DNA from: Elusimicrobiota bacterium
GTDB taxonomy: Bacteria; Elusimicrobiota; Elusimicrobia; UBA1565; UBA9628
Direction of reading: 5' to 3'
Assembly (NCBI GenBank): GCA_016218545.1
Contig: JACRDQ010000038.1
Span: 66,986-130,985 of the forward strand
DNA length: 64,000 nucleotides
The notes below the pieces were generated by a model. The model made no database searches. It was given only the letters and a program-made list of their open reading frames with translations, and had not been told where the DNA came from. Every line of letters begins with the position of its first letter. Within the stretch, counting starts at the first letter, position 1. The position numbers and the translations under genes were made by a program. Below are positions 33,011 to 48,945 of the stretch, piece by piece.

Positions 33011-33039
33011 ATTATAACAGTTGATGACGCCGGTGTCAG
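33011..33039 (-). promoter_or_regulatory. Sigma70-like promoter CTGACA-N17-TATAAT (extended TGtTATAAT) placed for a leaderless DsbA-like transcript
   Basis: On the minus strand the sequence reads CCTGACACCGGCGTCATCAACTGTTATAATAGCGGCATG. The -10 ends 6 nt before the ATG. The -35 lies within the right arm of the 57-bp palindrome. Confidence 0.4.
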
Positions 33040-33091
33040 GCATTCGAAAGATCCGAAAACCTTTGGTTTTCGGATCTTTCGAATGCCTGAC
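33035..33091. repeat. 57-bp perfect hairpin (27-bp arms, 3-nt loop). It would serve as a terminator for the subtilisin gene and overlaps the -35 of the DsbA-like promoter.
   Basis: GTCAGGCATTCGAAAGATCCGAAAACC-ttt-GGTTTTCGGATCTTTCGAATGCCTGAC, read directly. It lies immediately downstream, on the minus strand, of the S8 protease stop at 33100. Confidence 0.9.
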
Positions 33092-33099
33092 GCCAGCAA

Positions 33100-34329: not shown

Positions 34330-34451
34330 AGAAACCTCCTGTGTGACCCGCGCTCGGGCGCGGGGGAGACTCGGCGCTACATGGATGATGGCCGAGAGTA
34401 TAGCACAAAAGGAGGGAAGAAAGACCTACACGCGGCTAGGTCTTTTGGCCC

Positions 34452-35123
34452 CTAGAAGAGCCCCAGGAAGCGGTCTTCGTACTCCTCGAAGAGGCCGTAC
34501 TCGCGCAGCTTGTCCCCAAGCCGTTCCCTGGCCGCCGGGTCGGCCGAGGCCGCGGCGAAGAGCCCCGAGATCTCGCGCCGCCGGGCCTCGGCGGCCTTGC
34601 CTTCCGGGTCGAAGAGGCCGCGGCGCTCGAGGTCGCGGACGTGGACCGGGAAGGACCGCGCCGCCTCCTCGAGGGTCAGCTTCATGAGCGCCAGGGCCCA
34701 CCCCTTGTCCGGGCAGCGCAGCACCGCGGCGTGCGGGTCCTCGGAGCGCTCGACCTCGGCCAGGACGCGCTCGAGGACCGCGGGCAGCCTCTCGGAGACC
34801 ACGGTGGCGGCGAAGCCATCGTTCTTGAAGTTGTACTCGAGGACCCTGAGGAGGTCGCGGTAGGCGGCGTTCACCCAGCCCTCGAACTCGGCGGCCGTGT
34901 CGCCGAAGCCCTGGAACCGCTCCTTGAAGGAATCGGGCGTCACGATCTGCGGCCTCTCGGACACGACCGAGCCGCGGCGCACGCGCGTGCGGCCGGGCGC
35001 GTCCTCCAGAGGCGAGACCAGCCTGTAGGAGATGCGGGTGGCGCCGAAGGTCGAGAGCAGCCTGCGCGGGGAGCGCAGGACCTCGGTCCGCCGCAGGAGG
35101 GACTGGATGGCCGAGGGGTCCAT
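34452..35123 (-). CDS. Hypothetical protein, 223 aa
   Basis: ORF with an ATG start, divergent from the radical SAM gene. No recognisable motifs. Confidence 0.35.
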   Translation of the reverse strand: MDPSAIQSLLRRTEVLRSPRRLLSTFGATRISYRLVSPLEDAPGRTRVRRGSVVSERPQIVTPDSFKERFQGFGDTAAEFEGWVNAAYRDLLRVLEYNFKNDGFAATVVSERLPAVLERVLAEVERSEDPHAAVLRCPDKGWALALMKLTLEEAARSFPVHVRDLERRGLFDPEGKAAEARRREISGLFAAASADPAARERLGDKLREYGLFEEYEDRFLGLF

Positions 35124-35162
35124 GGGTTTGGTATGATGTGCTCCGACGGAGGATTATACAAC

Positions 35163-36137
35163 ATGGGCGTGGACCTTAGATTCGTGGCGACGGGGGCCAA
35201 GAGGGTCGTGGACTCGCGGCCTTTCTACGTGCAGATGATGGTGACGGACGACTGCAACCTCCGCTGCGCTTATTGCGACGAATACAACGCCGGCTCCCCG
35301 CTGCCTCCCCTCTCCGAGCTCATGGCGCGCGTCGACAAGCTCGACGCTCTGGGCGCGCTGGTCTACGACCTGCTCGGGGGCGAGCCCCTCCTGCACCCCG
35401 GCGTCGCCGAGCTCGTGGGCCGCGTCAAGTCCAAGCGGGGCGGTTCCAACCTCTGCACCATCATCACCAACGGGTTCCTCCTGACGCGCGACAACATCCG
35501 CGCCCTCAACGACGCTGGCCTGGATTTCATGCAGGTCTCGGTGGACTCGGTCGCGCCCACCGCGGCGTCGCAGAAATCCCTCAAGACCGTCATGCCGCGC
35601 CTGCGCCTGCTGGCGGAGGAGGCGAAGTTCACGGTGGAGGTCCAGACCGTGCTCTGCGAGTCCACCGCGGACTCCTACGACGAGTTCCGCTCCCTGATGA
35701 AGGACCTCCCCTTCTCCTTCGGGTTCTCGGTCCAGCACGGCCCCGGGGGCCGCATCGCCATCCAGGGGAAGAAGTACCTCGACCTCCTCGGGCGCTACGG
35801 CGTCTTCGAAGGCGTCAACTTCTACGGCAGGCACATCGAAGAGATGCTCCAGGGGGACTTCTCCCGGCCCTGGAAGTGCCTGGCCGGGTTCAAGTTCCTC
35901 TACGTGAACGCCGCGGGCGAGGTCCAGTGGTGCGGCCAGCAGCGGGCCGAGAAGCGGCCCTTGGCCGCGCTGGCCCCCGCGGACCTCAGGACCAACGACC
36001 GGCACAAGCCTTGCGAGCCCGGCTGCTCGCTCGGCTGCGTGCGCCTGGTCTCCCACACCCTGGGCCAGCCCGTGAAGACCTTCGGCGCGAGCGTGCGCCT
36101 CCTGCTGGCCGCGGTCCTGCCGAAGAAGAAGGAGTAG
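35163..36137 (+). CDS. Radical SAM enzyme with a C-terminal Cys-rich (SPASM/twitch-like) region; possible peptide or protein maturase
   Basis: The CxxxCxxC cluster is TDDCNLRCAYCDE, located about 30 residues from the N-terminus. The glycine-rich SAM motif is LLGGEPLL. Further Cys residues sit in the C-terminal third (WKCLAGF..., VQWCGQQ, KPCEPGCSLGC). The upstream 170 codons of the track ORF are rejected. Confidence 0.7.
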   Translation: MGVDLRFVATGAKRVVDSRPFYVQMMVTDDCNLRCAYCDEYNAGSPLPPLSELMARVDKLDALGALVYDLLGGEPLLHPGVAELVGRVKSKRGGSNLCTIITNGFLLTRDNIRALNDAGLDFMQVSVDSVAPTAASQKSLKTVMPRLRLLAEEAKFTVEVQTVLCESTADSYDEFRSLMKDLPFSFGFSVQHGPGGRIAIQGKKYLDLLGRYGVFEGVNFYGRHIEEMLQGDFSRPWKCLAGFKFLYVNAAGEVQWCGQQRAEKRPLAALAPADLRTNDRHKPCEPGCSLGCVRLVSHTLGQPVKTFGASVRLLLAAVLPKKKE

Positions 36138-36250
36138 TCTCCGGGGCGGCGGTCCCGGCCCGCGGAAGAATCCTCGTCCATCCGGGCGCGTTCTGTGGTA
36201 TGATAGACCTAGTCGCAGACTAGGCCCAAAGGCCCAGGAGGTACCCCTCG

Positions 36251-37159
36251 ATGAGAAGAGCCGCACTCGTCATCCCGGCCGCAGTCATGGCGTTCGCCCT
36301 GCTGGCGGCCACGGTCCGCGCCGAAGCCCCTGCGTTGGATTTCGACCAGGGCGTCAACGCCTCGGACGTCCTGAAGGCGGCCAAGGCGGCGGCGGCTGAC
36401 TCGAAGGTCGGCAAGGACGTGGTCGTCCGGCCGCTCTACCGCCGCTACGACCGCGACTGCGTCAACTTCACGATCGGCGCCGACGACGCGCCTCAGACCG
36501 AGGCCGTGTGGCTGCGCAGCACCGAGTGGGTGCAGGAGTGCCACCCGACGGGTCCCAACGGCGCTCAGACCTGCTATGACCGGCCGGGCTATACCTACAG
36601 GGAGCGCGCCTCCGTGGCCATCCGCGACCGCGGCCGGCTCTTCCCGTGGGAGTACGACAGCTTCGACGTCTGCCTCGAGGGCCCGTGGCTCAACATCTGG
36701 TCCCGCGAGACCGCCTACGAGTACAAGACCGTGCGGGGCGGGACGTACAACGGCGGCTTCGTGCTCTCCCCGGTCAAGAAGCTCCGCATGAAGCCCGACC
36801 CCGCCGGCATCCGCGTCCAGGCTCTGAGCCCGCAGCTGGCCGCGCTCTTCCGCGACAAGTGGGCCTCCTACTACGCGGGCGAGACCGTCGTGCTCTCGCT
36901 CAAGCTGCGCAAGTCCGTGCCGGGCTGGTTCGACGCGACTTTGCTCGAGCGTGAGCTCTCGTTCGCCGCCGCCGAGACCTACGGGGTGGACTTCATGGCC
37001 TTCGCCGGCGAGTTCTCGCAGAAGCTCGAGGCGGGCAAGCCCTACTACGTCGAGTACTCCTTCAAGAGGCTCAGCAAGATCTCGACGGACAAGCTCCAGA
37101 AGGCGGGGGAGTCCGACAAGGTCGTCTATCAGCCGGCCGCCGCGGCCCTGGGCCGTTAG
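36251..37159 (+). CDS. Secreted hypothetical protein, 302 aa, with 4 Cys
   Basis: The signal peptide is MRRAALVIPAAVMAFALLAATVRAEA. There is no homology recognisable by eye. Confidence 0.4.
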   Translation: MRRAALVIPAAVMAFALLAATVRAEAPALDFDQGVNASDVLKAAKAAAADSKVGKDVVVRPLYRRYDRDCVNFTIGADDAPQTEAVWLRSTEWVQECHPTGPNGAQTCYDRPGYTYRERASVAIRDRGRLFPWEYDSFDVCLEGPWLNIWSRETAYEYKTVRGGTYNGGFVLSPVKKLRMKPDPAGIRVQALSPQLAALFRDKWASYYAGETVVLSLKLRKSVPGWFDATLLERELSFAAAETYGVDFMAFAGEFSQKLEAGKPYYVEYSFKRLSKISTDKLQKAGESDKVVYQPAAAALGR

Positions 37160-37229
37160 CTCCGGCGGGAAGGCCGCAAAACGAAAGGCCCCTCCGGGCC
37201 GAGCCCGGAGGGGCCTTCCCGTCCCCGCC

Positions 37230-37553
37230 TCAGAGCAGGGGCGCGAAGAAGGTCCCGAGCCGGATGCTGATGATCTTGGTCTTCTCTCCGAGGTCCCTGC
37301 AGTAGGCGATGCTCACCAGGTCCGCCATGGGGGGCAGTCCGCCCGTGAGCCCGGCCTCGTATTGCCTGACCGCGATCAGGTAGCGCCGCGTGGCCACGCA
37401 CTCGTTCCAGAGCCCGCCGCCCCTGACCTTGGCCACGCAGAAGGAAAGCTCTTCCTTAGGTAGGTCCTTGGCCGGGTCGAGGGACGAGGCGGCCAGGGCC
37501 GCGGCCGGCAGGAGCAAGGCTGAGACCAGGAAGATCGAGAGGAATCGGTTCAT
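37230..37553 (-). CDS. Small secreted 3-Cys protein (about 107 aa). Paralog of the 40168-40452 gene. Divergently paired with TPR-STK #1.
   Basis: Start at internal Met MNRFLSIFLVSALLLPAAALA (signal peptide), preceded by a GGAGGTG RBS. The shared pattern with the paralog is F-C-x-x-K-V...GG...E-C...(about 22)...C. Confidence 0.5.
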   Translation of the reverse strand: MNRFLSIFLVSALLLPAAALAASSLDPAKDLPKEELSFCVAKVRGGGLWNECVATRRYLIAVRQYEAGLTGGLPPMADLVSIAYCRDLGEKTKIISIRLGTFFAPLL

Positions 37554-37576
37554 GATGCCACCTCCGTCGTTCCACA

Positions 37577-37624
37577 CCAGTATAACAGGGGTTTCTTGAC
37601 TTTTCAAGGGTGAGGGGATACACT
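37577..37624. promoter_or_regulatory. Back-to-back promoter module, copy 1. On the minus strand it gives an extended -10 TGTTATACT for the small gene. On the plus strand it gives TTGACT-N17-TACACT for TPR-STK #1.
   Basis: CCAGTATAACAGG at 37577-37589. TTGACT at 37596-37601 and TACACT at 37619-37624, with an exact 17-nt spacer. ATG at 37641. Near-identical modules occur at 40491-40539 and 42940-42968. Confidence 0.6.
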
Positions 37625-37640
37625 TCTCGTAGAGGCCCCT

Positions 37641-40100
37641 ATGACCACCCCGCTGCCGCTCGTCCTCGCCGCTCTCATCGGACTCTCCGGCCCGTGCGCG
37701 GCGCAGGGCGGGTCTTCTCCGGGTCCGGGCGACATCCCCGAGGACGTCCTGGAGTTGGTCGGCGGAGACGTCCCGGCGGAGACCACGGTCGAGCTCCCGG
37801 AGGAGGCCAAGGACCTCCCTCCTGAGCAGGACGTGACCTTCGATCCGAAGGAGAGGGAATCCTGGCAGGGCTGGGTGGCCTTCGAGACCTCGGCCAAGGA
37901 GAAGCTCAAGCGCCTGGAGTCTTTGAGCGACGAAGAGCTCTCCGGCCTGGAAGCCGAGATCATCAGGTTCACGGGCCAGGGCGTCAAGGACAAGGTCCTT
38001 TCCGGAGCGATCAACAAGCTCAACGAGCGCATCATCCAGCTGAGGAACACGCGGGCGCAGGAGGTCGCCGCCAAGCCGCCGACGACCCAGGCGGAGGCGG
38101 AGCAGCGCAACCGGCTGGACCGCGTCAGCGGGATGTTCGGCGAGATGTACAAGGGCATGGCCGTCCAGGAGATGAGGACGGACCCCCAGAGCCCTGAAGG
38201 CTTCTCCAGGTACGGTTTTGCGCTCGTCATGGAGGGGAAATACCGGCAGGCCGCGCCGGTGCTCGAGCGCGCCGTGCGGCTGGGGGCCAAGGACAGCCGG
38301 ACCTTCTCATCCTACGGCACCGCGGCCTTCCACCTCGGCGACTTCGCCCTGGCGCGCAGCGCAGCCGGCCGCGCGTTGAAGATCGACCCGCAGAACGACG
38401 CGGCCTTCGCGGTGATGCGGCTCTCCGAGGGCAAGAACCCGGCGGTGACCCTGCCCTCGGTCCTGACCGGAGGAGGGAGCGGGGAGGGGGTCTTCTCCGC
38501 GGCCGCCGGGAACGAGGCCGTGTCCGGAGCTCCTTCGGTGCAGGCCGGGGCTCAGCCGGCAGCGGCCGGCCGGGCTCCCATGGTCCTGAGGTCCCCGGAA
38601 GCGGGAAAGTCCTCCGCGTTCGCCAAGGAGGCTGCCGCGGCCCTGGCGGTCAAGGATTATCTCAGGGCCATCGAATCCGCGACCAGGGCCATCGAGGCCA
38701 ACGACGGCAATGCCCAGGCATGGAACTACCGCGCCATCGCGAACAGCAAGCTCGGCCGCTACGATGCCGCGGTCAGGGACGCGAGCCACGCCCTGGCCCT
38801 GGCGCCCAAGAATCCCGCGGCTCTCCACACCCGGTCCTGGGCCTTGAACAAGCTGGGCCGCTTCCAGGAGGGGCTGACGGACGCCGATGAGGTCCTGGCG
38901 CGGGAGCCGGACAACGCCTTCGCCCTGCAGAACCGCGCCTTCTCCCTGGCCGGGCTCGGGGACCGCAGGGGCATGCTCGCCGCGCTCAAGCGCGCGGCCG
39001 AGATCGAAAAGCGCTTCCAGGCCCGCTACGAGAAGGCCGTCCAGGTCCCCGAGAACGCGGACGTGCTCTTCCTCTTCGACCAGGACCCCGGGCTCAAGCC
39101 CGGGACCGCCCCTGAGGCCGAGGCCGGAGCCAAGGCCGGGCGGGGCCTCCTCATCCCGATCCTGGCCGGGGCCGGATTCCTGGCCGCCCTGGCCGCGGCG
39201 CTCTCCCTGGCCCGGTGGTGGAAGACCTCCTCTTCGGGCCTCGGCGCGTCCGGGAACGGCGGGGGCGCGGTCCTGCGGGCCAGGGGCGAGGCCGGTGCGT
39301 TCTGGAAGAAATACAAGCTGGTGCGCGAGGTCGGCAACGGCGGCATGGGCGTGGTCTACGAGGCCGAGGACACCTCCCTGGGACGGCGCGTGGCGATCAA
39401 GAAGATGCGCGACGAGATCCGGCTCGACCGCAAGGAGCGCGAGCGCTTCCTCCAGGAGGCCCGGACCGTGGCCTCGCTCCGGCACCCGAACATCGTGGAG
39501 ATCTACTCCATCGTCGAGGACGCAGGAGAGGTCTACCTCGTCTTCGAGTTTGCGGAAGGCAAGACCCTCCACGAGGTCCTCTCCGACGGCGCTCCGCTCC
39601 CCTTCGACGCGGCCCTGCGCGTGCTCAAGGACGCGTGCGAGGCCGTGGACTGCGCCCATCGCGCCAGGATCGTTCACCGGGACATCAAGCCCTCGAACAT
39701 CATGGTCACGGACAGCGGGCCGGCCAAGGTCATGGATTTCGGGGTGGCGCGGCAGGCCAAGGACGCGGCCACCAGGAGCACCGCGACCTCGGTGGCGGGC
39801 ACGCCTCCGTACATGGCTCCCGAGTCCGAGCAGGGCACGGTCGGGCCCCGGGGGGACGTCTACGGCCTGGCCGTGGTGTTCTACGAGATGCTGACCGGAA
39901 AGCTGCCTTTCGCCGGGACCGGGGCCGGCATGCTGCTCAACAAGATGAACCGCAAGTTCGACGCGCTCTCCCAGGCTGCGCCGGGCCTGCCCGCGGGCAT
40001 CGACGCGGTGATGTCGCGGGCCCTGGCTCCGGAGCCTGGCGAGAGGTTCAAGACCGCGGGAGAGTTCCTCGCCGCGGTCCAAGGGCTCAAGGCGTCCTGA
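37641..40100 (+). CDS. Receptor-type Ser/Thr protein kinase #1: signal peptide, extracytoplasmic TPR domain, TM helix, cytoplasmic Hanks-type kinase domain
   Basis: TPR repeats are present (AWNYRAIANSKLGRYDAAVRDASHALALAP...). The TM helix is LLIPILAGAGFLAALAAALSLA. Kinase motifs: VGNGGMGVVYEA, AIKKM, HRDIKPSN, DFGVAR, PPYMAPE. Confidence 0.85.
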   Translation: MTTPLPLVLAALIGLSGPCAAQGGSSPGPGDIPEDVLELVGGDVPAETTVELPEEAKDLPPEQDVTFDPKERESWQGWVAFETSAKEKLKRLESLSDEELSGLEAEIIRFTGQGVKDKVLSGAINKLNERIIQLRNTRAQEVAAKPPTTQAEAEQRNRLDRVSGMFGEMYKGMAVQEMRTDPQSPEGFSRYGFALVMEGKYRQAAPVLERAVRLGAKDSRTFSSYGTAAFHLGDFALARSAAGRALKIDPQNDAAFAVMRLSEGKNPAVTLPSVLTGGGSGEGVFSAAAGNEAVSGAPSVQAGAQPAAAGRAPMVLRSPEAGKSSAFAKEAAAALAVKDYLRAIESATRAIEANDGNAQAWNYRAIANSKLGRYDAAVRDASHALALAPKNPAALHTRSWALNKLGRFQEGLTDADEVLAREPDNAFALQNRAFSLAGLGDRRGMLAALKRAAEIEKRFQARYEKAVQVPENADVLFLFDQDPGLKPGTAPEAEAGAKAGRGLLIPILAGAGFLAALAAALSLARWWKTSSSGLGASGNGGGAVLRARGEAGAFWKKYKLVREVGNGGMGVVYEAEDTSLGRRVAIKKMRDEIRLDRKERERFLQEARTVASLRHPNIVEIYSIVEDAGEVYLVFEFAEGKTLHEVLSDGAPLPFDAALRVLKDACEAVDCAHRARIVHRDIKPSNIMVTDSGPAKVMDFGVARQAKDAATRSTATSVAGTPPYMAPESEQGTVGPRGDVYGLAVVFYEMLTGKLPFAGTGAGMLLNKMNRKFDALSQAAPGLPAGIDAVMSRALAPEPGERFKTAGEFLAAVQGLKAS

Positions 40101-40167
40101 CCGGGCTCGAGACAAAGAGGAAGCCCCCGGCGCGAGCCGGGGGCTTCCTCTTCGGCGCGGACCCGGG

Positions 40168-40452
40168 CTAGTTCTTCAGCACGATCTTCATCAAGGCTTG
40201 GCGGGCCTTGCCCGACTCAGCCTCGTTCTGGCAGAAGTCCCACCTGAAACCCTTGGGGAGGTTGCCTTGGTCGAGCAGGAAGCGCTCCGTGTCCATGCAT
40301 GCCTCGATGAGCGTCTGCTTCTTCGCGGCGTCTCCTCCGGCGAGGCGCTCTGCGACCTTGGGACAGAAGGTGTTTCCCGGCTCCCTTTGGCCCTGGGCGT
40401 AGACGATGCCGACGGTCACGGTCGTCAAAATGAGCGCGATGAGTTTTCTCAT
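40168..40452 (-). CDS. Small secreted 3-Cys protein (94 aa). Paralog of 37230-37553. Divergently paired with TPR-STK #2.
   Basis: The signal peptide is MRKLIALILTTVTVGIVYAQG. Cys residues are at FCPKV, EACMD and DFCQN. GGAGAGGAGGG RBS. Confidence 0.5.
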   Translation of the reverse strand: MRKLIALILTTVTVGIVYAQGQREPGNTFCPKVAERLAGGDAAKKQTLIEACMDTERFLLDQGNLPKGFRWDFCQNEAESGKARQALMKIVLKN

Positions 40453-40490
40453 AATCCCTCCTCTCCCAAGCAGGGAGTCAGCATTTCAAT

Positions 40491-40539
40491 CCCAGTATAA
40501 CAGGACCTCCTTGACAAATCAAGGGGGGGGCTGTACACT
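40491..40539. promoter_or_regulatory. Back-to-back promoter module, copy 2 (CCCAGTATAACAGG; TTGACA-N17-TACACT)
   Basis: TTGACA at 40511-40516 and TACACT at 40534-40539. ATG at 40555. The same architecture as copy 1. Confidence 0.6.
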
Positions 40540-40554
40540 AGGGATGGAGCGACC

Positions 40555-42906
40555 ATGAACCGCCTGAAGGCCTCGGCGCTTGCGCTGGCCTTGACCTCCT
40601 CTCTCTGGCTTCCCTCGGTCGTCCTCGTCGCCGAGGAGGACGCCGCGGGCGAGGATGAAGGCGACGTGGTGCGCGCGGTCCGCATCCGCGAGCTCATCTG
40701 GGGCGAGGTGCAGATCGAGGGCGACGTGACGCAGTACGTCACCCAGCTGCGCACGGAAATCAAGAGTTTGGAGGACAAGCAGCTCCGCGAGGACCTCCTG
40801 GTCGAGCTCGGCAAGAAGTTCGGCATGCCCGGCGACACCAGCCCCAGGCCCGAGGGAGGGGGGCCCAAGCCGGGCGAGTCAGGGTTCTCCGAGACCGTGG
40901 TGCTGGGGCTCAGGCGGAACATGCTGCCCGAATGGCGGCAGAACTCGCCCAACAACCCGGTGGCCTGGGCGGAGAACGGCTACCTCGACTGCTCGCTCCA
41001 GAACTACCGGGCCTGCCTGGCGAACCTCGGCCGGGCCATCGACCTCGGCATCAAGGACCCCAAGGCCTACGCGACCTACGGGAGCGCGGCCCACAATCTC
41101 GGCGACTACAAACTCGCCTTGAAGGCGGCCTCCGCGGCCTTGAAGCTCGACCCCGGGCACGAGGGCGCGCACGCGGTCTACAAACTCTCCGAGGGCAGGG
41201 TCTCCACGGTCGAGCTCCCGTCCTCCCTGCACGGCGACATCTTCGGAGGAGCTCCGGCCCTCCCGGCCGAGCCGGCCGCGGTGGACGCGCCTCCGCCGGC
41301 GCAGGCCGCGGGGGCCGTGGTGCCCGGGCGCGAGGCGGGCCCGGCTCCGGTCGTGCCCCAGGAGACCCAGCGCCGCATGACCGCGGCCGAGGTCGAGCGC
41401 TCCGCGGTCTTCACCCGCCAGGCCGCGGCGTCGCTGGCCGTGCGCGACTACGTGCAGGCCCACGAGGCGGCCAGCCGCGCCATCCAGATCAACCTTCGCA
41501 ACGCGCAGGCCTGGAACTACCGAGCCATCGCGAACAACAAGCTGGACCGCTACCAGGACGCGGTCTACGACGCGAGCTTCGCCTTGAACCTCGCTCCCGG
41601 GAACGCGGCGGCGCTCCAGAGCCGTTCGTGGGCCCACAACAAGTCCGGCAAATACCAGGAGGCGCTGGCGGACGCCAACTTCACCCTGGAGCGCGAGCCC
41701 GGCAACGCCTTCGCCTTCCAGAACCGGGCCTTCGCTCAGGCCGGGCTCAAGGACCGCGTGGGCATGCTGGAGTCCCTCAAGCGCTCCGCCGAGCTCGACC
41801 CCAGGTTCAAGCAGCGCTACGACGCGGCGCTCCAGGCGCCCGCGAGCGGCGACATCCTCTACCTCTTCGACGAGGAGTCCTCGGCCGGCAAGGCGGCTCC
41901 TCCGGCCTCGCCCGAGCGCATGCGCAAGCGCTTCCTCACCCTCTCGGCCGCGGTCGTCTCAGGGGGCCTGCTCATGGCCTTGGGCCTGCTGCACATCGTG
42001 TCCTCCGCCTGGAGGGAGAAGGTCCGCTCCACGGTCCGCCGGGTGCTCGGCGTGCCCACGCCCTCCTCCGGCCCCTCGGACCCGGCGACCGGGTCTCCTG
42101 CGAGCGGGGGCTTCTGGGGGCAGTACCGCCTCATCCGGGAGGTGGGCTTGGGAGGCATGGGCGTGGTCTACGAGGCGGTGGACACCGCACTCGACCGCCG
42201 GGTGGCCATCAAGAAGATGCGCGACGAGATCCGTCTCGACCGCAGGGAGCGCGAGCGCTTCCTCCAGGAGGCGCGGACCGTGGCCTCGCTCAAGCACCCC
42301 AACATCGTGGAGATCTTCTCGATCGTGGAGGACGGCGGGGACGTCTACCTCGTCTTCGAGTTCGCGGACGGCCGCACGCTATCAGCCCTGCTCGAGGAGG
42401 CCGGGAAGCTCCCCTTCGAGAAGGCCAAGGCCGTGCTCAAGGACGCGTGCGAGGCCGTGGACTGCGCCCACCGGCACAAGGTCGTGCACCGGGACATCAA
42501 GCCCTCGAACATCATGGTGACCGAGAGCGGAGCCGTGAAGGTCATGGACTTCGGTGTGGCGCGGCAGGCCAAGGAAGCGGCCACCAAGGTGATGACGAAC
42601 ACCGTGGCGGGCACCCCGCCTTACATGGCGCCTGAGGCGGAGCAGGGGACGGTCGGGCCCCAGTCGGACGTCTACGGGCTCGGGGTCGTGTTCTATGAGC
42701 TCCTCAGCGGGGAACTCCCGTTCGCAGGGCACGGGGCGGGCATGCTCCTCAACAAGCTCAACGGCAAGTTCATTCCCCTGTCCCAGGCGGCGTCCGGCCT
42801 GCCGACAGGCATCGACGCTGTGATGGCCCGGGTCCTGTCTCCGGACCCTGCCAAGCGCTATAAGAGCCCTACGGAGTTCTTCCAAGCTGTCCAAGGCCTT
42901 TCCTGA
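40555..42906 (+). CDS. Receptor-type TPR Ser/Thr protein kinase #2
   Basis: Same architecture as #1. The kinase domain is about 85% identical by eye (IKKMRDEIRLDRRERERFLQEARTVASLKHPNIVEIFSIVEDGGDVYLVFEFADG...). Confidence 0.85.
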   Translation: MNRLKASALALALTSSLWLPSVVLVAEEDAAGEDEGDVVRAVRIRELIWGEVQIEGDVTQYVTQLRTEIKSLEDKQLREDLLVELGKKFGMPGDTSPRPEGGGPKPGESGFSETVVLGLRRNMLPEWRQNSPNNPVAWAENGYLDCSLQNYRACLANLGRAIDLGIKDPKAYATYGSAAHNLGDYKLALKAASAALKLDPGHEGAHAVYKLSEGRVSTVELPSSLHGDIFGGAPALPAEPAAVDAPPPAQAAGAVVPGREAGPAPVVPQETQRRMTAAEVERSAVFTRQAAASLAVRDYVQAHEAASRAIQINLRNAQAWNYRAIANNKLDRYQDAVYDASFALNLAPGNAAALQSRSWAHNKSGKYQEALADANFTLEREPGNAFAFQNRAFAQAGLKDRVGMLESLKRSAELDPRFKQRYDAALQAPASGDILYLFDEESSAGKAAPPASPERMRKRFLTLSAAVVSGGLLMALGLLHIVSSAWREKVRSTVRRVLGVPTPSSGPSDPATGSPASGGFWGQYRLIREVGLGGMGVVYEAVDTALDRRVAIKKMRDEIRLDRRERERFLQEARTVASLKHPNIVEIFSIVEDGGDVYLVFEFADGRTLSALLEEAGKLPFEKAKAVLKDACEAVDCAHRHKVVHRDIKPSNIMVTESGAVKVMDFGVARQAKEAATKVMTNTVAGTPPYMAPEAEQGTVGPQSDVYGLGVVFYELLSGELPFAGHGAGMLLNKLNGKFIPLSQAASGLPTGIDAVMARVLSPDPAKRYKSPTEFFQAVQGLS

Positions 42907-42939
42907 ACCCTAATTTTCGGTAAAGAATGTTGTTCCAGC

Positions 42940-42968
42940 TTGACAAACCAGCCACCTCCCTATACACT
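42940..42968 (+). promoter_or_regulatory. Promoter copy 3, TTGACA-N17-TACACT, upstream of TPR-STK #3
   Basis: TTGACA at 42940-42945 and TACACT at 42963-42968. ATG at 43018. There is no divergent small gene here. Confidence 0.55.
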
Positions 42969-43017
42969 TATCACAGGGCGTGACCCGAGTTTTTGCCGGG
43001 TAGGAAGAGGAACTGCC

Positions 43018-45831
43018 ATGAACTTGAGAAATGCTTCGTTTTGCATGATTTTCATCGTTTGCCAGGCAGCGACGTTTAGCCTGGCCCAGGAAACTGCGTC
43101 CAAACAGGAGAGCGCGTCTCCCCAGAGTCTTCAGCTTGCCATGGAAGCCGCCTTCCCTCCTGCTCCGCACCGGGTGGTGGAAAGTCCGGATGGAGACACG
43201 GCGGCGGCCCTCCTGGCTACGGCTCCGAGCGGGGCCACCCTGGCCGAGGCCAACTTGCAGGTCCAACAGGCGAACAAGAAGGAGGGCAGGCGAGGGCGCA
43301 ACCCGGATCTGCCGCAGGTCATCGACGGCTTCTTCAAGAGAGGCACCTACGCGGAATTCGACAACATCCTCCAGAATTCCGACGATACAGGGGTCAAGTT
43401 CGGGATCTGGCAGCTGGTGCGCGGGTCCTACGGCTTCGCCAAGACCGAGAACGCGGTCAAGGACGGGGAGCTGGAGAAGGGCTCTGCCGAGTATGAGGGC
43501 GCGATCACCAGAGTCCATGGGCAATTCCGCACAGGGCTTGACGCTATCGACGGCAAACCCGTGCCCCAACTCGAAGGGACGCAGGGGCATGGCGGGGTGG
43601 ACAGGCGCAGGAGCCCGGAGTCTCGTCACGAGTACGGCCAGGCGCTGGGCAAGCTCCCGGACGGCCTTCAGCCGAGCAGTGAGTCTCTGGGAGCAGTGAC
43701 CACCAAGGACAAGAATGGGACGGACCAGATCGCCGGCTCCATCGAGGCGGCCAAGGCCTTGGTGGACACGACCGTGTCCGGAGTCCGCCAGGCGCTCGAG
43801 ACCAAGCTCGACTACGTGTTCGTGAGGGTCTGCGGAGGCCTTCCCAGCGCAGGGCAGGCGTGCGGCGGCAGTGAGACGCCCAAGCCCCCCACGCCTCCTG
43901 TCCCCGGCCCCGGCCCTGTTCCTGACCCGGTCCCCACCCCCACTCCTGGCCCTGTCGAGGATGGCCAGGGACAGCTCGACCAGGGGAACCCCCGGCAGGC
44001 TGCCGAGACCTTCGACCGGGCCATCGAGCGCGATCCATGGGACGTGCGAGCCATCGCGGGCAGGGCCCAGGCCAGCTATATGATGGGCGACTACCGCTTG
44101 GCGACAGGATTCTCCAAGGCCGCGCTGTCGCACGAGCCGGGCAACCAGGCCGCCTTCGCCACCTTGCGGCTTTCCGAGAACCGCTCTCCGAAGGCGTCGG
44201 CCTCCGCCGCGAGCGCTGCCGCGGCTGCTGGAGGAGGGAACGCCGAGCTTTTCGCCGCGAGCGCGGTCACCGGGGCGGGCGCTTCCTCGGGCTTCAAGCT
44301 GGATGCGACCCGGCCTGAGGCGGTCCAATCAGCGGCCCAGGTCAAGCTTGCCGAGAAGGCCCTGCGGGTCGGGGATTTCGCCGCTGCGCGGTCCTACTCG
44401 ACCCGCGCCCTGGAGCTCAACCCGAAGAACGGGCAAGCCCTCTTCTACCGCTCCGTGGTCAATGCCAATGGCCGCGACTATGCCGGTGCCCTGGCGGATG
44501 CCGAGGCCGGGCTCGCCCTGGTGCCGAACAATGCAGCGCTTCTCAATTCCAAGGCCTTCGCCCTCAACCGGATGGGAAAGTACAAGGACGCCTTGGCCGC
44601 TTCCGAGGCCGCCCTGCTCGTCAACCCCAGGGACGCCTCGGCCCTGGCCAACCGCGCCTACGCGGTGGGCGGGCTGGGGGACAGGGCCGCCATGCTTGAG
44701 AACCTGCGCGCCGCGGCCTCCATCGACCCGAGGTTCCAGTCCAGCCTCGAGTCCGCCCTGCAGATGCCCGATGACTCGGACCTGCTCTTCCTCTTCCCCG
44801 GCGAGGCCGGGCCGGCCCACGCCCGTTCGGGCGCGGTGCCCGAGCGCGGCAAGAGCCGGAGCCTGCGCACCCTCGGCTTGGCCGTGGTGGGCGTGCTGCT
44901 CGCGGCCGGTCTCTTCGCCTTCGCCACCGGAGGCCGCAGGGACGCGGCCCTCCCGGCCGCGGCCGGCAACGTCCCGGCCCCGGCCGACGGGCCCGTCCCG
45001 CAGCAGGGCGTGAGCACCCTGCTGCGCAACCAGTACGAGATCATCCGCCAGATCGGGGCCGGAGGCATGGGCGTGGTCTTCGAGGGCCTCGACCGCGCCC
45101 TCAGGCGCAAGGTGGCCATCAAGAAGATGCGCGAGGAGATCCGGCTCAACGCCAAGGAGCGGGAGCGCTTCCTCACCGAGGCCAAGACCGTGGCCTCCCT
45201 GCACCACCCCAACGTGGTCGACATCTACTCCATCGTGGAGGACGACGACGTCTACCTGGTCTTCGAGCACGTCTCCGGCGCCACGCTCCACGAGCGCATC
45301 CACCGCGACGGGCCCCTGCCCCTGGCCGAGGCCGTGGCCGTGTTCCAGGGCATCGCCGCGGCCCTGGACGCGGCTCATGGCCGCGGCATCATCCACCGCG
45401 ACCTCAAGCCCTCCAACGTCATGATCGACGAGGAGGGCAGCGCGAAGGTGATGGACTTCGGGGTGGCCCGGGTCGCCAAGGACGCGGCGGGCAGGTACTC
45501 GATGACCAACACCGTGATGGGGACGCCGCCCTACATGGCGCCGGAGCAGGAGACCGGGGTCGTGCGCAAGGAGGGAGACGTCTACTCCATGGCGATCTGC
45601 CTCTACGAGACCCTGACCGGGCAGCAGCCCTTCGCGGGCATGGGCGCGGGCATGCTCCTCAACAAGATGAACGCGTCCTTCGCTCCGGCGACCAAGACGA
45701 ATCCTGTCCTGCCCCAAGGCATCGACGCTGTCTTCTCCAAGGCGTTCGCGGCCGACCCGGATAAGCGCTACGCCTCGGCGGGCGAGTTCATGAAGGCCGT
45801 AGAAGCCGCGGCCGGGGTCCCGAAGGCGTGA
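43018..45831 (+). CDS. Receptor-type TPR Ser/Thr protein kinase #3
   Basis: Signal peptide MNLRNASFCMIFIVCQAATFSLAQE. A longer extracytoplasmic region with a Pro-rich stretch and TPRs is followed by a TM helix and a kinase domain (IGAGGMGVVFEG, HRDLKPSN, DFGVAR, PPYMAPE). The 42940 TTG start given in the track is rejected. Confidence 0.8.
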   Translation: MNLRNASFCMIFIVCQAATFSLAQETASKQESASPQSLQLAMEAAFPPAPHRVVESPDGDTAAALLATAPSGATLAEANLQVQQANKKEGRRGRNPDLPQVIDGFFKRGTYAEFDNILQNSDDTGVKFGIWQLVRGSYGFAKTENAVKDGELEKGSAEYEGAITRVHGQFRTGLDAIDGKPVPQLEGTQGHGGVDRRRSPESRHEYGQALGKLPDGLQPSSESLGAVTTKDKNGTDQIAGSIEAAKALVDTTVSGVRQALETKLDYVFVRVCGGLPSAGQACGGSETPKPPTPPVPGPGPVPDPVPTPTPGPVEDGQGQLDQGNPRQAAETFDRAIERDPWDVRAIAGRAQASYMMGDYRLATGFSKAALSHEPGNQAAFATLRLSENRSPKASASAASAAAAAGGGNAELFAASAVTGAGASSGFKLDATRPEAVQSAAQVKLAEKALRVGDFAAARSYSTRALELNPKNGQALFYRSVVNANGRDYAGALADAEAGLALVPNNAALLNSKAFALNRMGKYKDALAASEAALLVNPRDASALANRAYAVGGLGDRAAMLENLRAAASIDPRFQSSLESALQMPDDSDLLFLFPGEAGPAHARSGAVPERGKSRSLRTLGLAVVGVLLAAGLFAFATGGRRDAALPAAAGNVPAPADGPVPQQGVSTLLRNQYEIIRQIGAGGMGVVFEGLDRALRRKVAIKKMREEIRLNAKERERFLTEAKTVASLHHPNVVDIYSIVEDDDVYLVFEHVSGATLHERIHRDGPLPLAEAVAVFQGIAAALDAAHGRGIIHRDLKPSNVMIDEEGSAKVMDFGVARVAKDAAGRYSMTNTVMGTPPYMAPEQETGVVRKEGDVYSMAICLYETLTGQQPFAGMGAGMLLNKMNASFAPATKTNPVLPQGIDAVFSKAFAADPDKRYASAGEFMKAVEAAAGVPKA

Positions 45832-45885
45832 ACAGGTTCGGGGCCTGGGGGAAGGGAGGGGCGCAGATTTTGTACAATAGCAGTA

Positions 45886-45935
45886 GGAAATCCTGATGAA
45901 AAGGATTTCCTTCCTGAACGCTCTGCGTTCAGGAA
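45886..45935 (+). terminator. Two adjacent hairpins between the STK #3 gene and ssrA
   Basis: GGAAATCCT-gatgaaa-AGGATTTCC (45886-45910) and TTCCTGAACG-ctctg-CGTTCAGGAA (45911-45935). No U-tract. Confidence 0.35.
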
Positions 45936-45942: not shown

Positions 45943-46293
45943 GGGGGTGAATAGGTTCGACAGCTGCCTCTAGGTCGTTGGCAGCAGGCCCTGGTTGGTC
46001 AGCGCCAGGATAAAAGCCGACCAAAACAACAAAAGCCAACTCACAGTTGGCCTGGGCCACCGCCTAATAAGCGCGTAGCCTACGCCGGTCCCTGACACCT
46101 GCTGGGGGAGCGCCGGCGTCATGAGCAGGCTGGACGGCCGCACCGCGCGTTTCGTCGGGGCGGACGTCGAGAACAAAACGGAACAACTCGGGAGCACCTG
46201 TCCGCCGGTTTTCCCGGGTCGTGCCGGCGGACTAAGCCTGTAGCGGCCGCGGCGGGAGACGGTTGGACTCGAGTGCGATTCTCGACACCTCCA
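45943..46293 (+). ncRNA. ssrA: tmRNA (transfer-messenger RNA, ssrA). Predicted tag ORF GCC AAC TCA CAG TTG GCC TGG GCC ACC GCC TAA TAA (ANSQLAWATA**).
   Basis: The 5' end is GGGGGUGAAUAGGUUCGACAG. The 3' end is GGACUCGAGUGCGAUUCUCGACACCUCCA. The acceptor stem GGGGGUG pairs with CACCUCC and includes a G3:U70 wobble. A 5-bp T-stem (UCGAG/CUCGA) with a 7-nt loop abuts the acceptor strand. The discriminator is A and CCA is not encoded. The A-rich tract ACCAAAACAACAAAA precedes the resume codon, and there is a double stop UAAUAA. Total length is about 351 nt. Confidence 0.85.
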
Positions 46294-46297
46294 AGAT

Positions 46298-46351: not shown

Positions 46352-47668
46352 GTGTTTGACTACCGCTTCGTCACCCTGCTCGGCGCGACCCTGGTCTTCG
46401 CCCCGCTGTCGGTCCTCTTCATCTTCATCTCCGGCATGGGTCCGGGCCTCTTCCCTCTCTACGGGCTCATCTTCCTCTGGTGCGACTACCGCAGGGAGGC
46501 CGAGGCGCACGTCATCTTCCTCTTCATGGTGACCACCGCCGGGGTCGTGCTCGCGGCCTCCGCCGCAGCGCAGCGGAACGTGCTCGGAGCCGAGATCCTC
46601 GGGATGTGGATCCTGGTATGGGCCCTGGGCCTCCATCACCGGCGGGGCGCCGATGTCCTGCACGAGGCCCGGGAGGAGATGGCCAAGCTGGCCGGGTCCC
46701 TGCGGGACGACGAGTCCGAGTTGACGCGACTCAACGCCTATCAGGCGAGCGCCGCGGTCCAGATCGGCCTGCGCCAGGACCTCACCGAGAGCGCGCGCAG
46801 CCTGGGCTCGACGCTCGACGGCCGCGAGGTCCACGTCCGATTGAACGGCATCCTCTGCGCGCGCTTTGCGGGCAGCAGGGTGCGCATCCAGGCCTGGGCT
46901 TCGGGGGACCCCCTGCTCGAGTTGGCGATGAAGGCCGGGACCGTGGCCCTGGTCAAGGACACGGCCACGGACGCGCGCTTTTCCTCGGGCGGGGCGGGCT
47001 TCCGCTCCGGGATGGCGGCCCCGCTGAAGGTCATGCGCCAGTCCGCGGGCTTCGTCAAGGTCGAGTCGGACCAGGCCGGCGCGTTCGGCACGCAGGAGGT
47101 CCAGTCCCTGGACCTCATCACCACCATGGCGTCCCTGAGCCTGGAGAACATCCGGCTCTACGAGACCGTGCAGGAGCAGGCCACGCACGATCCGCTGACC
47201 GGGCTCTTCAGCCACCGGGCCTTCCAGGCCAGGCTGCACGAGGAGCTCCTCCGCGCCGGACGCAGCCAGACCCCGGTGTCCTTCATCCTCTGCGACGTGG
47301 ACCACTTCAAGACCTACAACGACCGCTACGGCCACCAGGCCGGAGACTCCCTGCTCAGGTCCGTGGCGTCCATGCTCGCGTCCTTCGCCCGGCCGGTGGA
47401 CTTCCCGGCCCGCTACGGCGGAGAGGAGTTCTGCCTCGTGCTGCCGAGCGTCCCGCTCGCCGAGGCCCTGGACCTGGCCGAGCGCCTGCGCGCCCGCGTC
47501 GAGGCCGAATCTTTCGTTTTCCAGGGCGTCAAGACCGGGGCCACGATGAGCCTGGGCGTGTCCGCTTTCCCCCAGGACGCCACCACCGCCAGCCAGATCG
47601 TGCGCGTGGCCGATGAGCGGCTCTACCGCGCCAAAGCCGGGGGCCGCAACAGGGTGGCGGGGGTCTGA
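46352..47668 (+). CDS. Membrane GAF-GGDEF diguanylate cyclase #1 (GTG start)
   Basis: It has 3-4 N-terminal TM helices, a GAF-like region and a GGDEF domain with RYGGEEF and DPLTGLFSHRAF. Its stop overlaps the start of the next GGDEF gene. Confidence 0.75.
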   Translation: MFDYRFVTLLGATLVFAPLSVLFIFISGMGPGLFPLYGLIFLWCDYRREAEAHVIFLFMVTTAGVVLAASAAAQRNVLGAEILGMWILVWALGLHHRRGADVLHEAREEMAKLAGSLRDDESELTRLNAYQASAAVQIGLRQDLTESARSLGSTLDGREVHVRLNGILCARFAGSRVRIQAWASGDPLLELAMKAGTVALVKDTATDARFSSGGAGFRSGMAAPLKVMRQSAGFVKVESDQAGAFGTQEVQSLDLITTMASLSLENIRLYETVQEQATHDPLTGLFSHRAFQARLHEELLRAGRSQTPVSFILCDVDHFKTYNDRYGHQAGDSLLRSVASMLASFARPVDFPARYGGEEFCLVLPSVPLAEALDLAERLRARVEAESFVFQGVKTGATMSLGVSAFPQDATTASQIVRVADERLYRAKAGGRNRVAGV

Positions 47669-48945
47669 TGCTGGAGCTCGCCTTCCTTTCCTTGGCTCCG
47701 GCCGCGGGCCTGCTGGCCGCCTATCCCCGCCGGGTCTCGGGCGCGGTCTTCGCGGCCGCGGTCGCCCTGGCGGGTTCGGCCGCCGCTTTCGTCCTCTACG
47801 CGCCCGGCGACCGGCCCCTCGCACTCGGGGTCGGGCTCTGGAGCGTGGCGGGCTCGCTCTACGCCATCCACCTCTCCCGCAGGGAGCTGCGCGAGCACGG
47901 CCACGTCAGGGACAAGGTCGCCCAGCTCCGGGCCCGCCGCGTGGACACGGCCAAGGCCGTGGCCGAGGCCCGGTCCCGCAGCGAGGAGACCCAGCGCAAC
48001 CACAAGGAATCCACCGCCCTCTACGCCATGGTCAAGGGCCTCTCCGCGGCCATCTCCTGGGACGAGATCAAGCCGAGGCTCGAGGCCGCGGTGGACCAGT
48101 ATCTCGGGGTGTCGGGCTTCGCCCTGTACGTGGCCGGGATGCGCGGCGAGGACGATTTCCAGCCCCTGGCCGGCCGCAACCTGGCGGGCTCGCCCGGGAG
48201 CGCCTGGGCGACCCTGGGCCGCCGCCTGCAGGAGGCGGCCCTGAGCCCCTGGCAGGCCCACATCCTCGACCGGCCGGAGAAGGCCCTGTGCGTCCCGGTG
48301 CTCGACAACGCCGAGCTCCTCGGCGTCCTCTACCTGCGCCTGCCCGACGCCGCGGACCCTCGCGCCCTGCTGGGCAAGGCCTCCGCTTTCGCCGGAGAGG
48401 TGGCGTTCGCCTTCCGCAGGGTGAAGCTCTTCCAGGAGATGGAGCGGCTCTCCCAGATCGACGGCCTCACCGGCGTCCACCGCCGCGGGAGCTTCGACGA
48501 GCGCCTCCGCGACGAGACCGTGCGCTCCAGGACCTTCAAGACGACCTTCTGTCTGCTCATCCTCGACATCGACCATTTCAAGAGCCTCAATGACCGCTAC
48601 GGCCACCCCTTCGGCGACCAGGTCCTCCGGCGCATCGGCGAGGTCCTCAACCACTCCTTCTACGAGACAGATTTCGTCGCGCGCTACGGCGGAGAGGAGT
48701 TCGCGGTCATCCTGCCCCGGGCCCAATACGACGGGGCCCGCCGCAAAGCGGAGGCCGTGCGCACCGCCATCGAGTCCGAGTCGTTTGCGATCGCCCTGGA
48801 TACGGTCCGGGTGACGGTCTCGATCGGCGTGGCGCACTTTCCGAGGGACGCGGCGACCCCTGAGGAGCTCGTCTCCCAGGCGGACCAAGCGCTCTACCGG
48901 GCCAAGAGCCTGGGGCGCAATAGGGTGGTGGAGTTCACACGATGA
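47668..48945 (+). CDS. Membrane GAF-GGDEF diguanylate cyclase #2 (paralog)
   Basis: Same architecture as #1, with RYGGEEF and IDGLTGVHRRGSF. There is an ATGA overlap with sppA. Confidence 0.75.
   Translation: MLELAFLSLAPAAGLLAAYPRRVSGAVFAAAVALAGSAAAFVLYAPGDRPLALGVGLWSVAGSLYAIHLSRRELREHGHVRDKVAQLRARRVDTAKAVAEARSRSEETQRNHKESTALYAMVKGLSAAISWDEIKPRLEAAVDQYLGVSGFALYVAGMRGEDDFQPLAGRNLAGSPGSAWATLGRRLQEAALSPWQAHILDRPEKALCVPVLDNAELLGVLYLRLPDAADPRALLGKASAFAGEVAFAFRRVKLFQEMERLSQIDGLTGVHRRGSFDERLRDETVRSRTFKTTFCLLILDIDHFKSLNDRYGHPFGDQVLRRIGEVLNHSFYETDFVARYGGEEFAVILPRAQYDGARRKAEAVRTAIESESFAIALDTVRVTVSIGVAHFPRDAATPEELVSQADQALYRAKSLGRNRVVEFTR

Follow-up and report, generated by a model that had tools for sequence, protein, structure and literature searches.

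We analysed a 64,000-nt stretch of an Elusimicrobiota bacterium (assembly GCA_016218545.1, contig JACRDQ010000038.1, positions 66,986 to 130,985 of the forward strand), hereafter the window, in which three consecutive plus-strand genes, K1, K2 and K3, encode predicted membrane kinases of the Hanks type with tetratricopeptide repeats (TPR) ahead of the kinase domain. A preliminary description, made from the letters of the window, had read positions 37230–45831 as a tandem triplication of receptor-type kinases, each behind a near-identical promoter. The three-gene region holds, but two small genes, S1 and S2, paired divergently with K1 and K2, and the bidirectional promoters between the partners had been overlooked; position 37230, given there as the start of the region, is the stop end of the minus-strand gene S1, which lies outside any kinase gene and was not mentioned. 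The features of the array are listed below in window coordinates.

37183–37218, no strand: GC-rich hairpin between the convergent S1 and a gene for a 302-aa secreted protein (−46 kcal/mol, z −4.2)
37230–37553, minus strand: S1, small secreted protein gene divergent from K1; 107 aa, signal peptide, 3 Cys
37579–37607, minus strand: S1 promoter, TTGAAA-N17-TATACT with extended TG (consensus scan)
37596–37624, plus strand: K1 promoter, TTGACT-N17-TACACT (word search and consensus scan)
37641–40100, plus strand: K1, open reading frame of 819 aa
40115–40152, no strand: GC-rich hairpin between the convergent K1 and S2 (−53.5 kcal/mol, z −5.6)
40168–40452, minus strand: S2, small secreted protein gene divergent from K2; 94 aa, signal peptide, 3 Cys
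40494–40522, minus strand: S2 promoter, TTGATT-N17-TATACT with extended TG (consensus scan)
40511–40539, plus strand: K2 promoter, TTGACA-N17-TACACT (word search and consensus scan)
40555–42906, plus strand: K2, open reading frame of 783 aa
42908–42924, plus strand: upstream direct repeat CTAAT-N5-GTAAA, at about −67 to −51 from the predicted K3 start site
42940–42968, plus strand: K3 promoter, TTGACA-N17-TACACT, beginning 33 nt past the K2 stop codon
43018–45831, plus strand: K3, open reading frame of 937 aa

The K3 open reading frame opens at 42940, with a TTG that lies inside the −35 box, and the first in-frame start past the −10 box is the ATG at 43018. Both small genes have a Shine-Dalgarno sequence (GGAGG in S1) and a coding-type GC content at third codon positions (GC3; 0.85 in S1). 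The hairpin at 40115–40152 is likely a bidirectional terminator of K1 and S2; in the gap between K2 and K3, a hairpin scan found none comparable to those beside K1/S2 and upstream of S1. We use A-type for K1 and K2, which have a divergent small partner gene, and B-type for K3, which always stands behind an A-type gene and has no small partner; the terms extend to their counterparts in other genomes.

Pfam profiles placed a Pkinase domain (PF00069) at the C-terminus of all three proteins (172–184 bits against a cut-off of 31.7), and TPR_1, TPR_2, TPR_16, TPR_17 and TPR_19 above their cut-offs in the N-terminal half. The complete set of catalytic motifs (GxGxxGxV, VAIK, HRD[IL]KPSN, DFG and APE) was found in K1, K2 and K3, and these motifs are mostly invariant or nearly so in a 40-sequence family alignment. 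Behind the N-terminal signal-like segment, hydropathy analysis found exactly one hydrophobic helix per protein, located ahead of the kinase, as a candidate transmembrane (TM) segment (K1 503–521, K2 461–479, K3 618–636). Pfam, motifs and hydropathy agree here with the preliminary description, which had seen a signal-like N-terminus, TPR, one TM helix and an intact Hanks kinase in each of the three genes. The predicted layouts are as follows.

K1: signal peptide, variable N-terminal region, TPR-A, linker, TPR-B, TM 503–521, Hanks kinase 558–815
K2: signal peptide 1–26, variable region, TPR-A 111–212, linker 213–276, TPR-B 277–427, TM 457–482, kinase 520–780
K3: signal peptide, variable region of about 290 aa, TPR-A, linker, TPR-B, TM 618–636, kinase 673–918

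An AlphaFold model of K2, built with the 40-sequence family alignment as input, reached a mean predicted local distance difference test score (pLDDT) of 81.7. It contains a signal helix followed by three moderately confident helices at residues 35–88, and antiparallel helices in TPR-A (six) and TPR-B (nine) with pLDDT >90; the linker 213–276 is Pro/Ala-rich and disordered in the model. By profile, catalytic motifs and protein kinase fold, K1, K2 and K3 are Hanks kinases, and several TPR profiles above cut-off together with the helical array of the model identify them as TPR-repeat proteins. A fold search with the full K2 model was dominated by kinase matches and returned nothing specific on the TPR part. 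We also observed a motif D(V/I/L)L(F/Y)LF(D/P) common to the three proteins (K1 470–482, K2 429–441, K3 585–597), which is located about 20–25 residues before the TM segment within a low-confidence region of the model.

The receptor-like-kinase logic had been called unusual for bacteria, and the order of sensor first and kinase last is indeed a minority arrangement there: among the 79 nearest kinases outside the family, the kinase domain is N-terminal in 64 and C-terminal in only 3, and those three carry HAMP, PDZ or CHASE2 sensors. Signal-peptide-like N-termini, often with an AxA-type end, were found in most representatives family-wide, and the hydropathy pattern is consistent with a type I layout throughout the family. 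Because the TPR region is flanked by two hydrophobic segments and the kinase requires ATP, the TPR region should be periplasmic, and the predicted topology places the TPR part in the periplasm and the kinase in the cytoplasm. Elusimicrobia are taken to be diderm, so the sensor would face the periplasm and not the cell surface; the term surface receptor, used in the preliminary description, does not fit this arrangement.

The word TTGACW-N17-TACACT occurs at exactly three sites in the window (37596, 40511 and 42940), all on the plus strand and one ahead of each kinase gene, and it was not found in any of 100 dinucleotide-preserving shuffles of the window. The statement that each kinase stands behind its own copy of TTGAC(T/A)-17nt-TACACT, with exact spacing, is borne out in full. 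All three match the sigma-70 consensus TTGACA/TATAAT at 9–10 of 12 positions with a spacing of 17, as expected of sigma-70-type promoters. The distance from the −10 box to the start codon is 16 nt in K1, 15 nt in K2 and 49 nt in K3, and each gene has a ribosome-binding site (GAGG, GGAG or GGAAGAGGA); none of the three is itself leaderless.

The survey in other genomes covered the window and 33 non-redundant loci, 556 kb in all. The strict word TTGACN-N17-TACACT occurs there 29 times, and 27 of these sites are directly ahead of a family kinase gene. A further strict site, at 11923 in locus L014, precedes a truncated open frame at the kinase-array position, in which the kinase-domain match begins only at 12654. 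The sole strict site in the 556 kb unconnected to a kinase array is at 20141 (plus strand) in L008, where the ATG of an unrelated small gene (MATKNPRLIVTLEP...) follows 6 nt later. A looser search (TTGACN-N16-18-TAnnnT) returned 62 sites, among them 32 with TACACT and 11 with TAAACT, nearly all of these ahead of kinase genes, and the −10 box of the divergent small genes is mostly TATACT. The −10 box in use is therefore TAnACT. The sole other near-consensus TTGACN promoter-like site in the window, TTGACG-N18-TATACT at 62091–62120 (plus strand), stands immediately ahead of a receiver-domain gene (62091–62513).

The promoter arrangement is kept at about 40 family genes in about 25 metagenome-assembled genomes (MAGs), with fixed orientation and a short distance to the start codon. 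In about 19 family genes, mostly of the B-type, an in-frame start codon (ATG in all but one) lies 6–7 nt past the −10 box (with an ATG, for example, at the promoter sites L008 12007, L010 6734, L012 4114, L014 9519, L016 1727, L017 3308, L019 7174, L022 11551, L023 9839 and 11541, and L027 5411), exactly where transcription should begin, suggesting that these mRNAs are leaderless. This spacing supports the prediction that the words are real promoters of the sigma-70 type.

Over a 48-nt promoter core, the window and its closest relative, L003, are identical at 45 of 48 positions for K1, at 47 of 48 for K2 (the whole spacer included) and at 38 of 48 for K3. Synonymous sites, in contrast, differ at 32–60% between the closest orthologues, and the promoter TTGACA-17-TAnACT appears to be under strong purifying selection across the family. 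That K1, K2 and K3 are each an independent transcription unit under a strongly constrained promoter is the best-supported reading. Among the three promoters of the window, near-identity is confined to the hexamers and the spacing. The K1 and K2 cores share 36 of 48 positions, among them the −10 word CCAGTATAACAGG of the divergent promoter and the TCAAGGG spacer, indicating that the promoter was copied with the module, but the K3 core shares only 18–24 of 48 with either, mostly the two hexamers. The B-type promoters in L008 and L010 retain the A-type spacer AATTCAAGGGG (11 of 17 positions shared with K2), which fits a common origin of the K3 promoter with the A-type. The earlier claim that each promoter was duplicated along with its gene is therefore well supported for K1 and K2 and only plausible for K3.

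The −35 boxes of the S1 and S2 promoters directly abut those of the K1 and K2 promoters, forming back-to-back bidirectional units, and the S1 −10 word AGTATAACAGG is kept upstream of A-type kinases in many MAGs. A divergent gene for a small secreted protein was found ahead of A-type kinases in 13 genomes and never ahead of a B-type kinase. S1 has orthologues at the same position in L001, L002 and L003, and the S2 orthologue in L003 is about 70% identical. The small proteins share a weak motif, C-x2-(T/S)R-x-(Y/F)(L/I), and three of the four S1 orthologues (window, L002, L003) end in FFAP(I/L)L. S1 has no Pfam or NCBIfam match, a single-sequence database search with S1 returned only S1 itself, and a profile of the small proteins searched against 5.8 billion proteins found 11 members, all hypothetical and without annotation. 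L002 has the small gene ahead of K2 in duplicate, as tandem copies (9219–9536 and 9533–9844, minus strand), of which the second matches the S2 profile at E 2e-9, indicating that the small genes also duplicate on their own.

At B-type promoters, and at A-type ones without a tightly abutting divergent promoter, we found an AT-rich direct repeat, GGnTAAW-N3-6-GGTWAA. The 556 kb contain 15 matches, and 13 of them sit 32–33 nt ahead of the −35 box of a family kinase; the 14th precedes the L003 K3 promoter at a contig end, and the 15th is 33 nt ahead of the −35 box of a divergent small-gene promoter in L012. In the window copy, the first half was identified by eye and is degenerate. The direct repeat could be an UP-like element or a response-regulator site. 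It recalls the repeats of OmpR/PhoB-type regulators, for example the CpxR box GTAAA-N5-GTAAA, and with a period that is mostly 11 here the likeness serves as a lead only.

The complete array, in the order small gene, K1, small gene, K2, K3, is present in L001 and L002 within a shared neighbourhood, with genes for PAS-GGDEF, response regulator, MauE/DoxX, DsbA-like, S8 peptidase, hypothetical, radical S-adenosylmethionine (SAM) and secreted hypothetical proteins upstream, and for GGDEF, GGDEF and SppA proteins downstream of K3. L003, L004 and L007 have the array or the neighbourhood in part, and more distant MAGs have arrays of two to four copies. In a simple neighbour-joining tree of 38 family proteins, without support values, the orthologues of K1, of K2 and of K3 fall into separate clades. 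The K1 and K2 clades are sisters, and the window, L001, L002 and L003 are represented in both; the K3 clade includes the second-position genes of many MAGs. Orthologues at the same position in other MAGs and a tree grouped by orthology suggest that both duplications predate these species. The history would comprise two duplications, namely an ancient split of A-type and B-type (the K3 type) and a later split of K1 and K2, still before the sampled species diverged. Duplication of the whole A-type module (small gene, bidirectional promoter and kinase) as one unit, giving K1 and K2, is well supported by the promoter core shared at 36 of 48 positions. The array is best explained as an old, stably retained, syntenic set of paralogous PknB-like membrane kinases with reversed domain order. 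We therefore do not retain the word triplication in the sense of a recent event, because orthologues of each copy lie in the same neighbourhood elsewhere and the tree separates the three clades.

Divergence between the paralogues, and between the orthologues of each, differs along the protein (percent identity).

Kinase: K1/K2 75%; either against K3 57–59%; orthologues 69–89%
TPR-B (membrane-proximal, K2 286–445): K1/K2 60%; either against K3 40–41%; orthologues 62–86%
TPR-A: K1/K2 41%; either against K3 34–35%; orthologues 46–82%
N-terminal 110–290 residues: K1/K2 13%; either against K3 13–18%

Even between K1 or K3 orthologues, whose kinases are 69–80% identical, the N-terminal segment is only 14–25% identical; between K2 orthologues it is 30–60% identical. 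By the Nei-Gojobori method, the ratio of nonsynonymous to synonymous divergence (dN/dS) is 0.13–0.34 for the kinase and 0.14–0.30 for TPR-B, values that are rough, since dS is near saturation at a GC3 of about 0.9, and that are informative for the alignable parts only; by this measure, purifying selection acts on the kinase and on both TPR modules. Values of dN/dS >1 in the N-terminal and juxtamembrane segments were rejected as an artefact of aligning non-homologous residues, and the N-terminal ones are no evidence of positive selection. The ectodomain appears to be a mosaic in which TPR-B is as conserved as the kinase among orthologues and only the N-terminal 110–290 residues cannot be aligned. 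The preliminary description had set highly similar kinases against diverging ectodomains. The similarity stands for K1 and K2, but falls to 57–59% against K3, and the ectodomain divergence is not uniform. It had also named equal conservation of ectodomain and kinase as the outcome that would speak for plain recent duplication without diversification, and such equality was found for TPR-B, not for the N-terminal part. Diversification of the ectodomain as a whole does not agree with TPR-B, which among orthologues resembles the kinase in identity and in dN/dS; turnover is confined to the N-terminal segment, and relaxed constraint accounts for it no less well than diversifying selection.

A database entry annotated 'protein kinase', from an Elusimicrobia MAG, is identical to K2. 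About 41 database proteins match K2 over nearly its full length, and every named one is from Elusimicrobia; the K2 matches beyond these cover the kinase third only. Among species-representative genomes, a scan recovered 33 loci; apart from two titled merely 'bacterium', these belong to MAGs of Elusimicrobia, for the most part from groundwater. The K2 ectodomain alone, searched against 1.84 billion representatives, gave 125 matches below 1e-30. About 42 of the 125 span the whole two-module ectodomain in one stretch, most of them with signal-like N-termini, and among the ectodomain matches the complete proteins mostly have a C-terminal HRD kinase motif; the remaining matches are generic long TPR arrays in which only TPR-B is matched. 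The two-module ectodomain thus appears to be restricted to proteins of the K1/K2/K3 type, and the kinase family appears to be confined to Elusimicrobia, as far as these searches can tell. No NCBIfam model reaches its cut-off for the kinases, and literature searches found no description of this family. Four more distant kinase arrays (L028, L029, L030 and L035), with up to four tandem kinase genes in L030, have kinase identities below 50% and lack the conserved promoter word, which suggests that the promoter is a trait of the inner family only.

Taken together, we read the locus, with a probability of roughly 0.68, as an old syntenic array of three paralogous membrane kinases with the order sensor–TM–kinase, each under its own conserved promoter, with two small-protein/kinase modules. 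This reading is based on gene structure, domains, motifs, conservation, synteny and promoter footprints. Several points weigh against it. The charge distribution around the TM helix does not clearly obey the positive-inside rule (Lys/Arg before and after the helix 5 and 3 in K2, 5 and 2 in K3) and departs from what is expected of a type I layout, and the K1 signal peptide has no charged n-region. The tree, as said, has no support values and the dN/dS estimates are rough. The homology of S1 and S2 is marginal: a profile of the S1 group finds S2 as its best outside match at E 0.003, in the other direction the E value is 0.2, and with BLASTP the two do not match. The structure model of S1 has a pLDDT of 52 and is unreliable. 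Finally, divergence of the small proteins does not follow that of the variable kinase-protein segment (Spearman rho 0.04 over 12 orthologue pairs, no better than for other segments).

From the features of this array we infer topology, promoter use, kinase activity, ligand and targets. By analogy with PknB-type kinases, binding of a protein or peptide from the periplasm to the TPR modules would change the oligomeric state of the kinase, and this change would lead to trans-autophosphorylation on the conserved TxT threonines of the activation loop, as in PknB. The activated kinase would then phosphorylate cytoplasmic targets. The conserved TPR-B may bind a shared partner or form a dimer contact, and TPR-A with the N-terminal segment may provide paralogue-specific recognition. 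Signal perception by the TPR part, autophosphorylation of the loop and the downstream targets are all putative steps of this scheme.

Among the alternatives and extensions, the one that survives best is that S1 and S2 are cognate to the adjacent kinases, as ligands, co-receptors or periplasmic inhibitors, with the abutting −35 boxes coupling or opposing the expression of the two partners. The presence of a small gene ahead of A-type kinases in 13 genomes and its duplication with the kinase are in line with this, as are the signal peptides on all these proteins, the bidirectional core that is near-invariant between orthologues down to its spacer, and the FFAP(I/L)L tail kept in three of four S1 orthologues; TPR domains, moreover, typically bind peptides or protein tails. 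However, the small proteins do not co-vary with the variable segment of the kinases and have no recognisable fold or family, B-type kinases do without a partner, and divergent neighbours can persist for regulatory reasons alone. We consider the pairing a tentative possibility with the odds clearly against it. A more elaborate form, held a little more doubtfully still, would make the A-type unit a self-contained ligand–receptor kinase module with S1 or S2 as its cognate protein, in which duplication yields insulated channels and the GTAAA-type repeat is the entry of a response regulator for the B-type.

The TPR region might instead act in the periplasm as a scaffold by which the kinase is brought into an envelope complex, or might not be exported at all if the N-terminal stretch is no signal peptide. 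In diderm envelopes, TPR proteins such as PilF/PilW and BamD act as scaffolds, the NCBIfam search gave weak similarities to PilW and PrsT, and the charge around the TM helix is ambiguous. Non-export is at odds with the two hydrophobic segments, which put the region between them on the side opposite to the ATP-dependent kinase, and with the signal-like segment, often with its AxA-type end, found family-wide; a scaffold role is compatible with a sensor role. We regard this explanation as improbable.

Still less probable, and largely refuted, is a recent tandem triplication in which diversifying selection drove the ectodomains apart while the kinase was kept, giving an expanding repertoire of surface receptors. 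The contrast of 75% identity in the paralogue kinases with 13–60% in the ectodomain segments, the N-terminal segment that cannot be aligned even among orthologues, and the variable copy number in other MAGs, with arrays of two to four copies, would all be expected from it. Each copy, however, has orthologues in the same order and neighbourhood and the tree groups them by orthology, TPR-B is constrained like the kinase, and the N-terminal dN/dS >1 is an artefact. That the TTGACA-N17-TACACT words have arisen by chance, belong to a repeated intergenic element or serve as operators instead of promoters is very hard to believe: none is expected by chance, about 40 genes have the word in a fixed orientation and at a fixed short distance from the start codon, in about 19 of them the start codon coincides with the expected start of transcription, and hexamers and 17-nt spacing are invariant while spacers drift. 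In favour of this alternative is the spacer TTGACAAnTCAAGGGG, with a short palindrome that persists without a divergent gene (L008 12007, L010 6734).

Compared with known systems, the preferred reading of an old array of sensor-first kinases describes a variant of familiar parts. The receptor kinases of the PknB/PknA/StkP type have the opposite domain order and PASTA domains in place of TPR. The model for PknB/Stk1 PASTA kinases, NF033483 (PknB_PASTA_kin), gave 284–290 bits for the K proteins against a cut-off of 450, with a match that covers the kinase part only (model positions 3–268 of 563); the kinase is C-terminal here and there is no PASTA domain, so these proteins do not belong to that group. 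In serine/threonine kinases (STKs) of Planctomycetota, TPR or WD40 arrays with a predicted periplasmic location occupy the C-terminal end (PMC11032199). The membrane STKs of Planctomycetota and myxobacteria resemble the K proteins in their cytoplasmic Hanks kinase, single TM segment, predicted periplasmic TPR and lineage-specific duplication, but have long TPR arrays in the order kinase–TM–TPR (PMC11032199). The Elusimicrobia proteins differ from the Planctomycetota ones by two short N-terminal TPR modules behind a signal peptide, a small stable array and a conserved promoter for each gene. As the combination of periplasmic TPR and kinase is already known, the variant here is the reversed order behind a signal peptide. 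In cyanobacterial STKs, accessory domains are C-terminal except FHA and CHASE2 (PMC2176072). STKs linked to CHASE2, HAMP or PDZ domains, which account for the three C-terminal kinases mentioned above, share the sensor-then-kinase order, but their sensors are multi-pass or two-TM and unrelated to TPR, and they do not combine a signal peptide with a single TM segment.

The RLK/Pelle-IRAK kinases and the receptor tyrosine kinases share the predicted type I layout, with a signal peptide, a repeat-type ectodomain, one TM segment and a C-terminal kinase. The kinase domain itself is of the bacterial PknA/PknB type (PknA 5e-51 against IRAK4 6.5e-32) and does not group with RLK/Pelle, so that the tie to eukaryotic receptor-like kinases (RLKs) drawn in the preliminary description cannot be kept as kinship; the resemblance is one of layout only, by convergence. 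Tandem paralogues are common among plant and animal receptor kinases, and small secreted peptide ligands are known for plant RLKs. In the RRNPP systems (Rap/Phr, PlcR/PapR), the gene for a TPR receptor stands beside a gene for a small secreted product; these receptors are cytoplasmic, bind re-imported short peptides, have helix-turn-helix (HTH) or phosphatase outputs and occur in Firmicutes. The K proteins fall outside this group: their TPR part follows a signal peptide and is joined to a kinase, they contain neither an HTH nor a phosphatase domain, and the neighbouring small genes encode proteins of 80–140 aa.

Bacterial Hanks kinases have nearly always been described with the order kinase–TM–sensor, and their signals are mostly unknown; the present family would add the opposite layout, with a sensor of two TPR modules. 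Its cis-architecture is unusually legible across many uncultivated genomes, with a near-consensus promoter, leaderless variants, a divergent back-to-back promoter and a fixed direct repeat. For a phylum with almost no genetics, this yields concrete predictions on promoter consensus, start sites, leaderless translation and candidate ligand–receptor pairing, and experiments would be most worthwhile on the promoter architecture and on the small genes paired with the kinases. If the small proteins are ligands, the array would be a simple model for the duplication and divergence of a receptor-kinase/ligand pair in bacteria, and if the module reading is true, its logic would parallel that of plant peptide/RLK pairs, with transcriptional coupling, or a toggle, between ligand and receptor built in. 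If they are not ligands, it is an ordinary though tidy case of retained kinase paralogues.

Downstream of K3, the window contains a transfer-messenger RNA (tmRNA, ssrA) gene at 45943–46294 (plus strand, tag ANSQLAWATA), preceded by two hairpins (45885–45934), and then two adjacent genes for membrane GGDEF diguanylate cyclases (46352–47668 and 47668–48945, plus strand) and a gene for an SppA/S49 peptidase. The block GGDEF-GGDEF-SppA stands behind the kinase array in 11 other loci. We set aside a functional link between the kinases and the GGDEF pair: K3 and the first GGDEF gene are separated by the tmRNA gene, so that shared synteny is a simpler account than shared function. Anti-phage kinase systems (PD-T4-6, mad6, PglW) were likewise considered and rejected; the PADLOC matches cover the kinase domain only (e.g. 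K1 556–816), the partner genes of such systems are missing, and the neighbourhood is a chromosomal one that is conserved between genomes.

Upstream of S1, a conserved block at 29852–37159 encodes a receiver-only response regulator, a PAS-GGDEF protein, a second receiver protein, a DsbA-like thioredoxin, an S8 subtilase, a 223-aa hypothetical protein, a radical SAM protein and the 302-aa secreted hypothetical protein. The radical SAM protein shows weak similarity, below cut-offs, to MoaA and SPASM maturases. The products of this block may form a periplasmic set for disulfide formation or peptide maturation that bears on the small proteins with their cysteines. In L001 and L002, the MauE/DoxX gene is located beside the DsbA-like gene.

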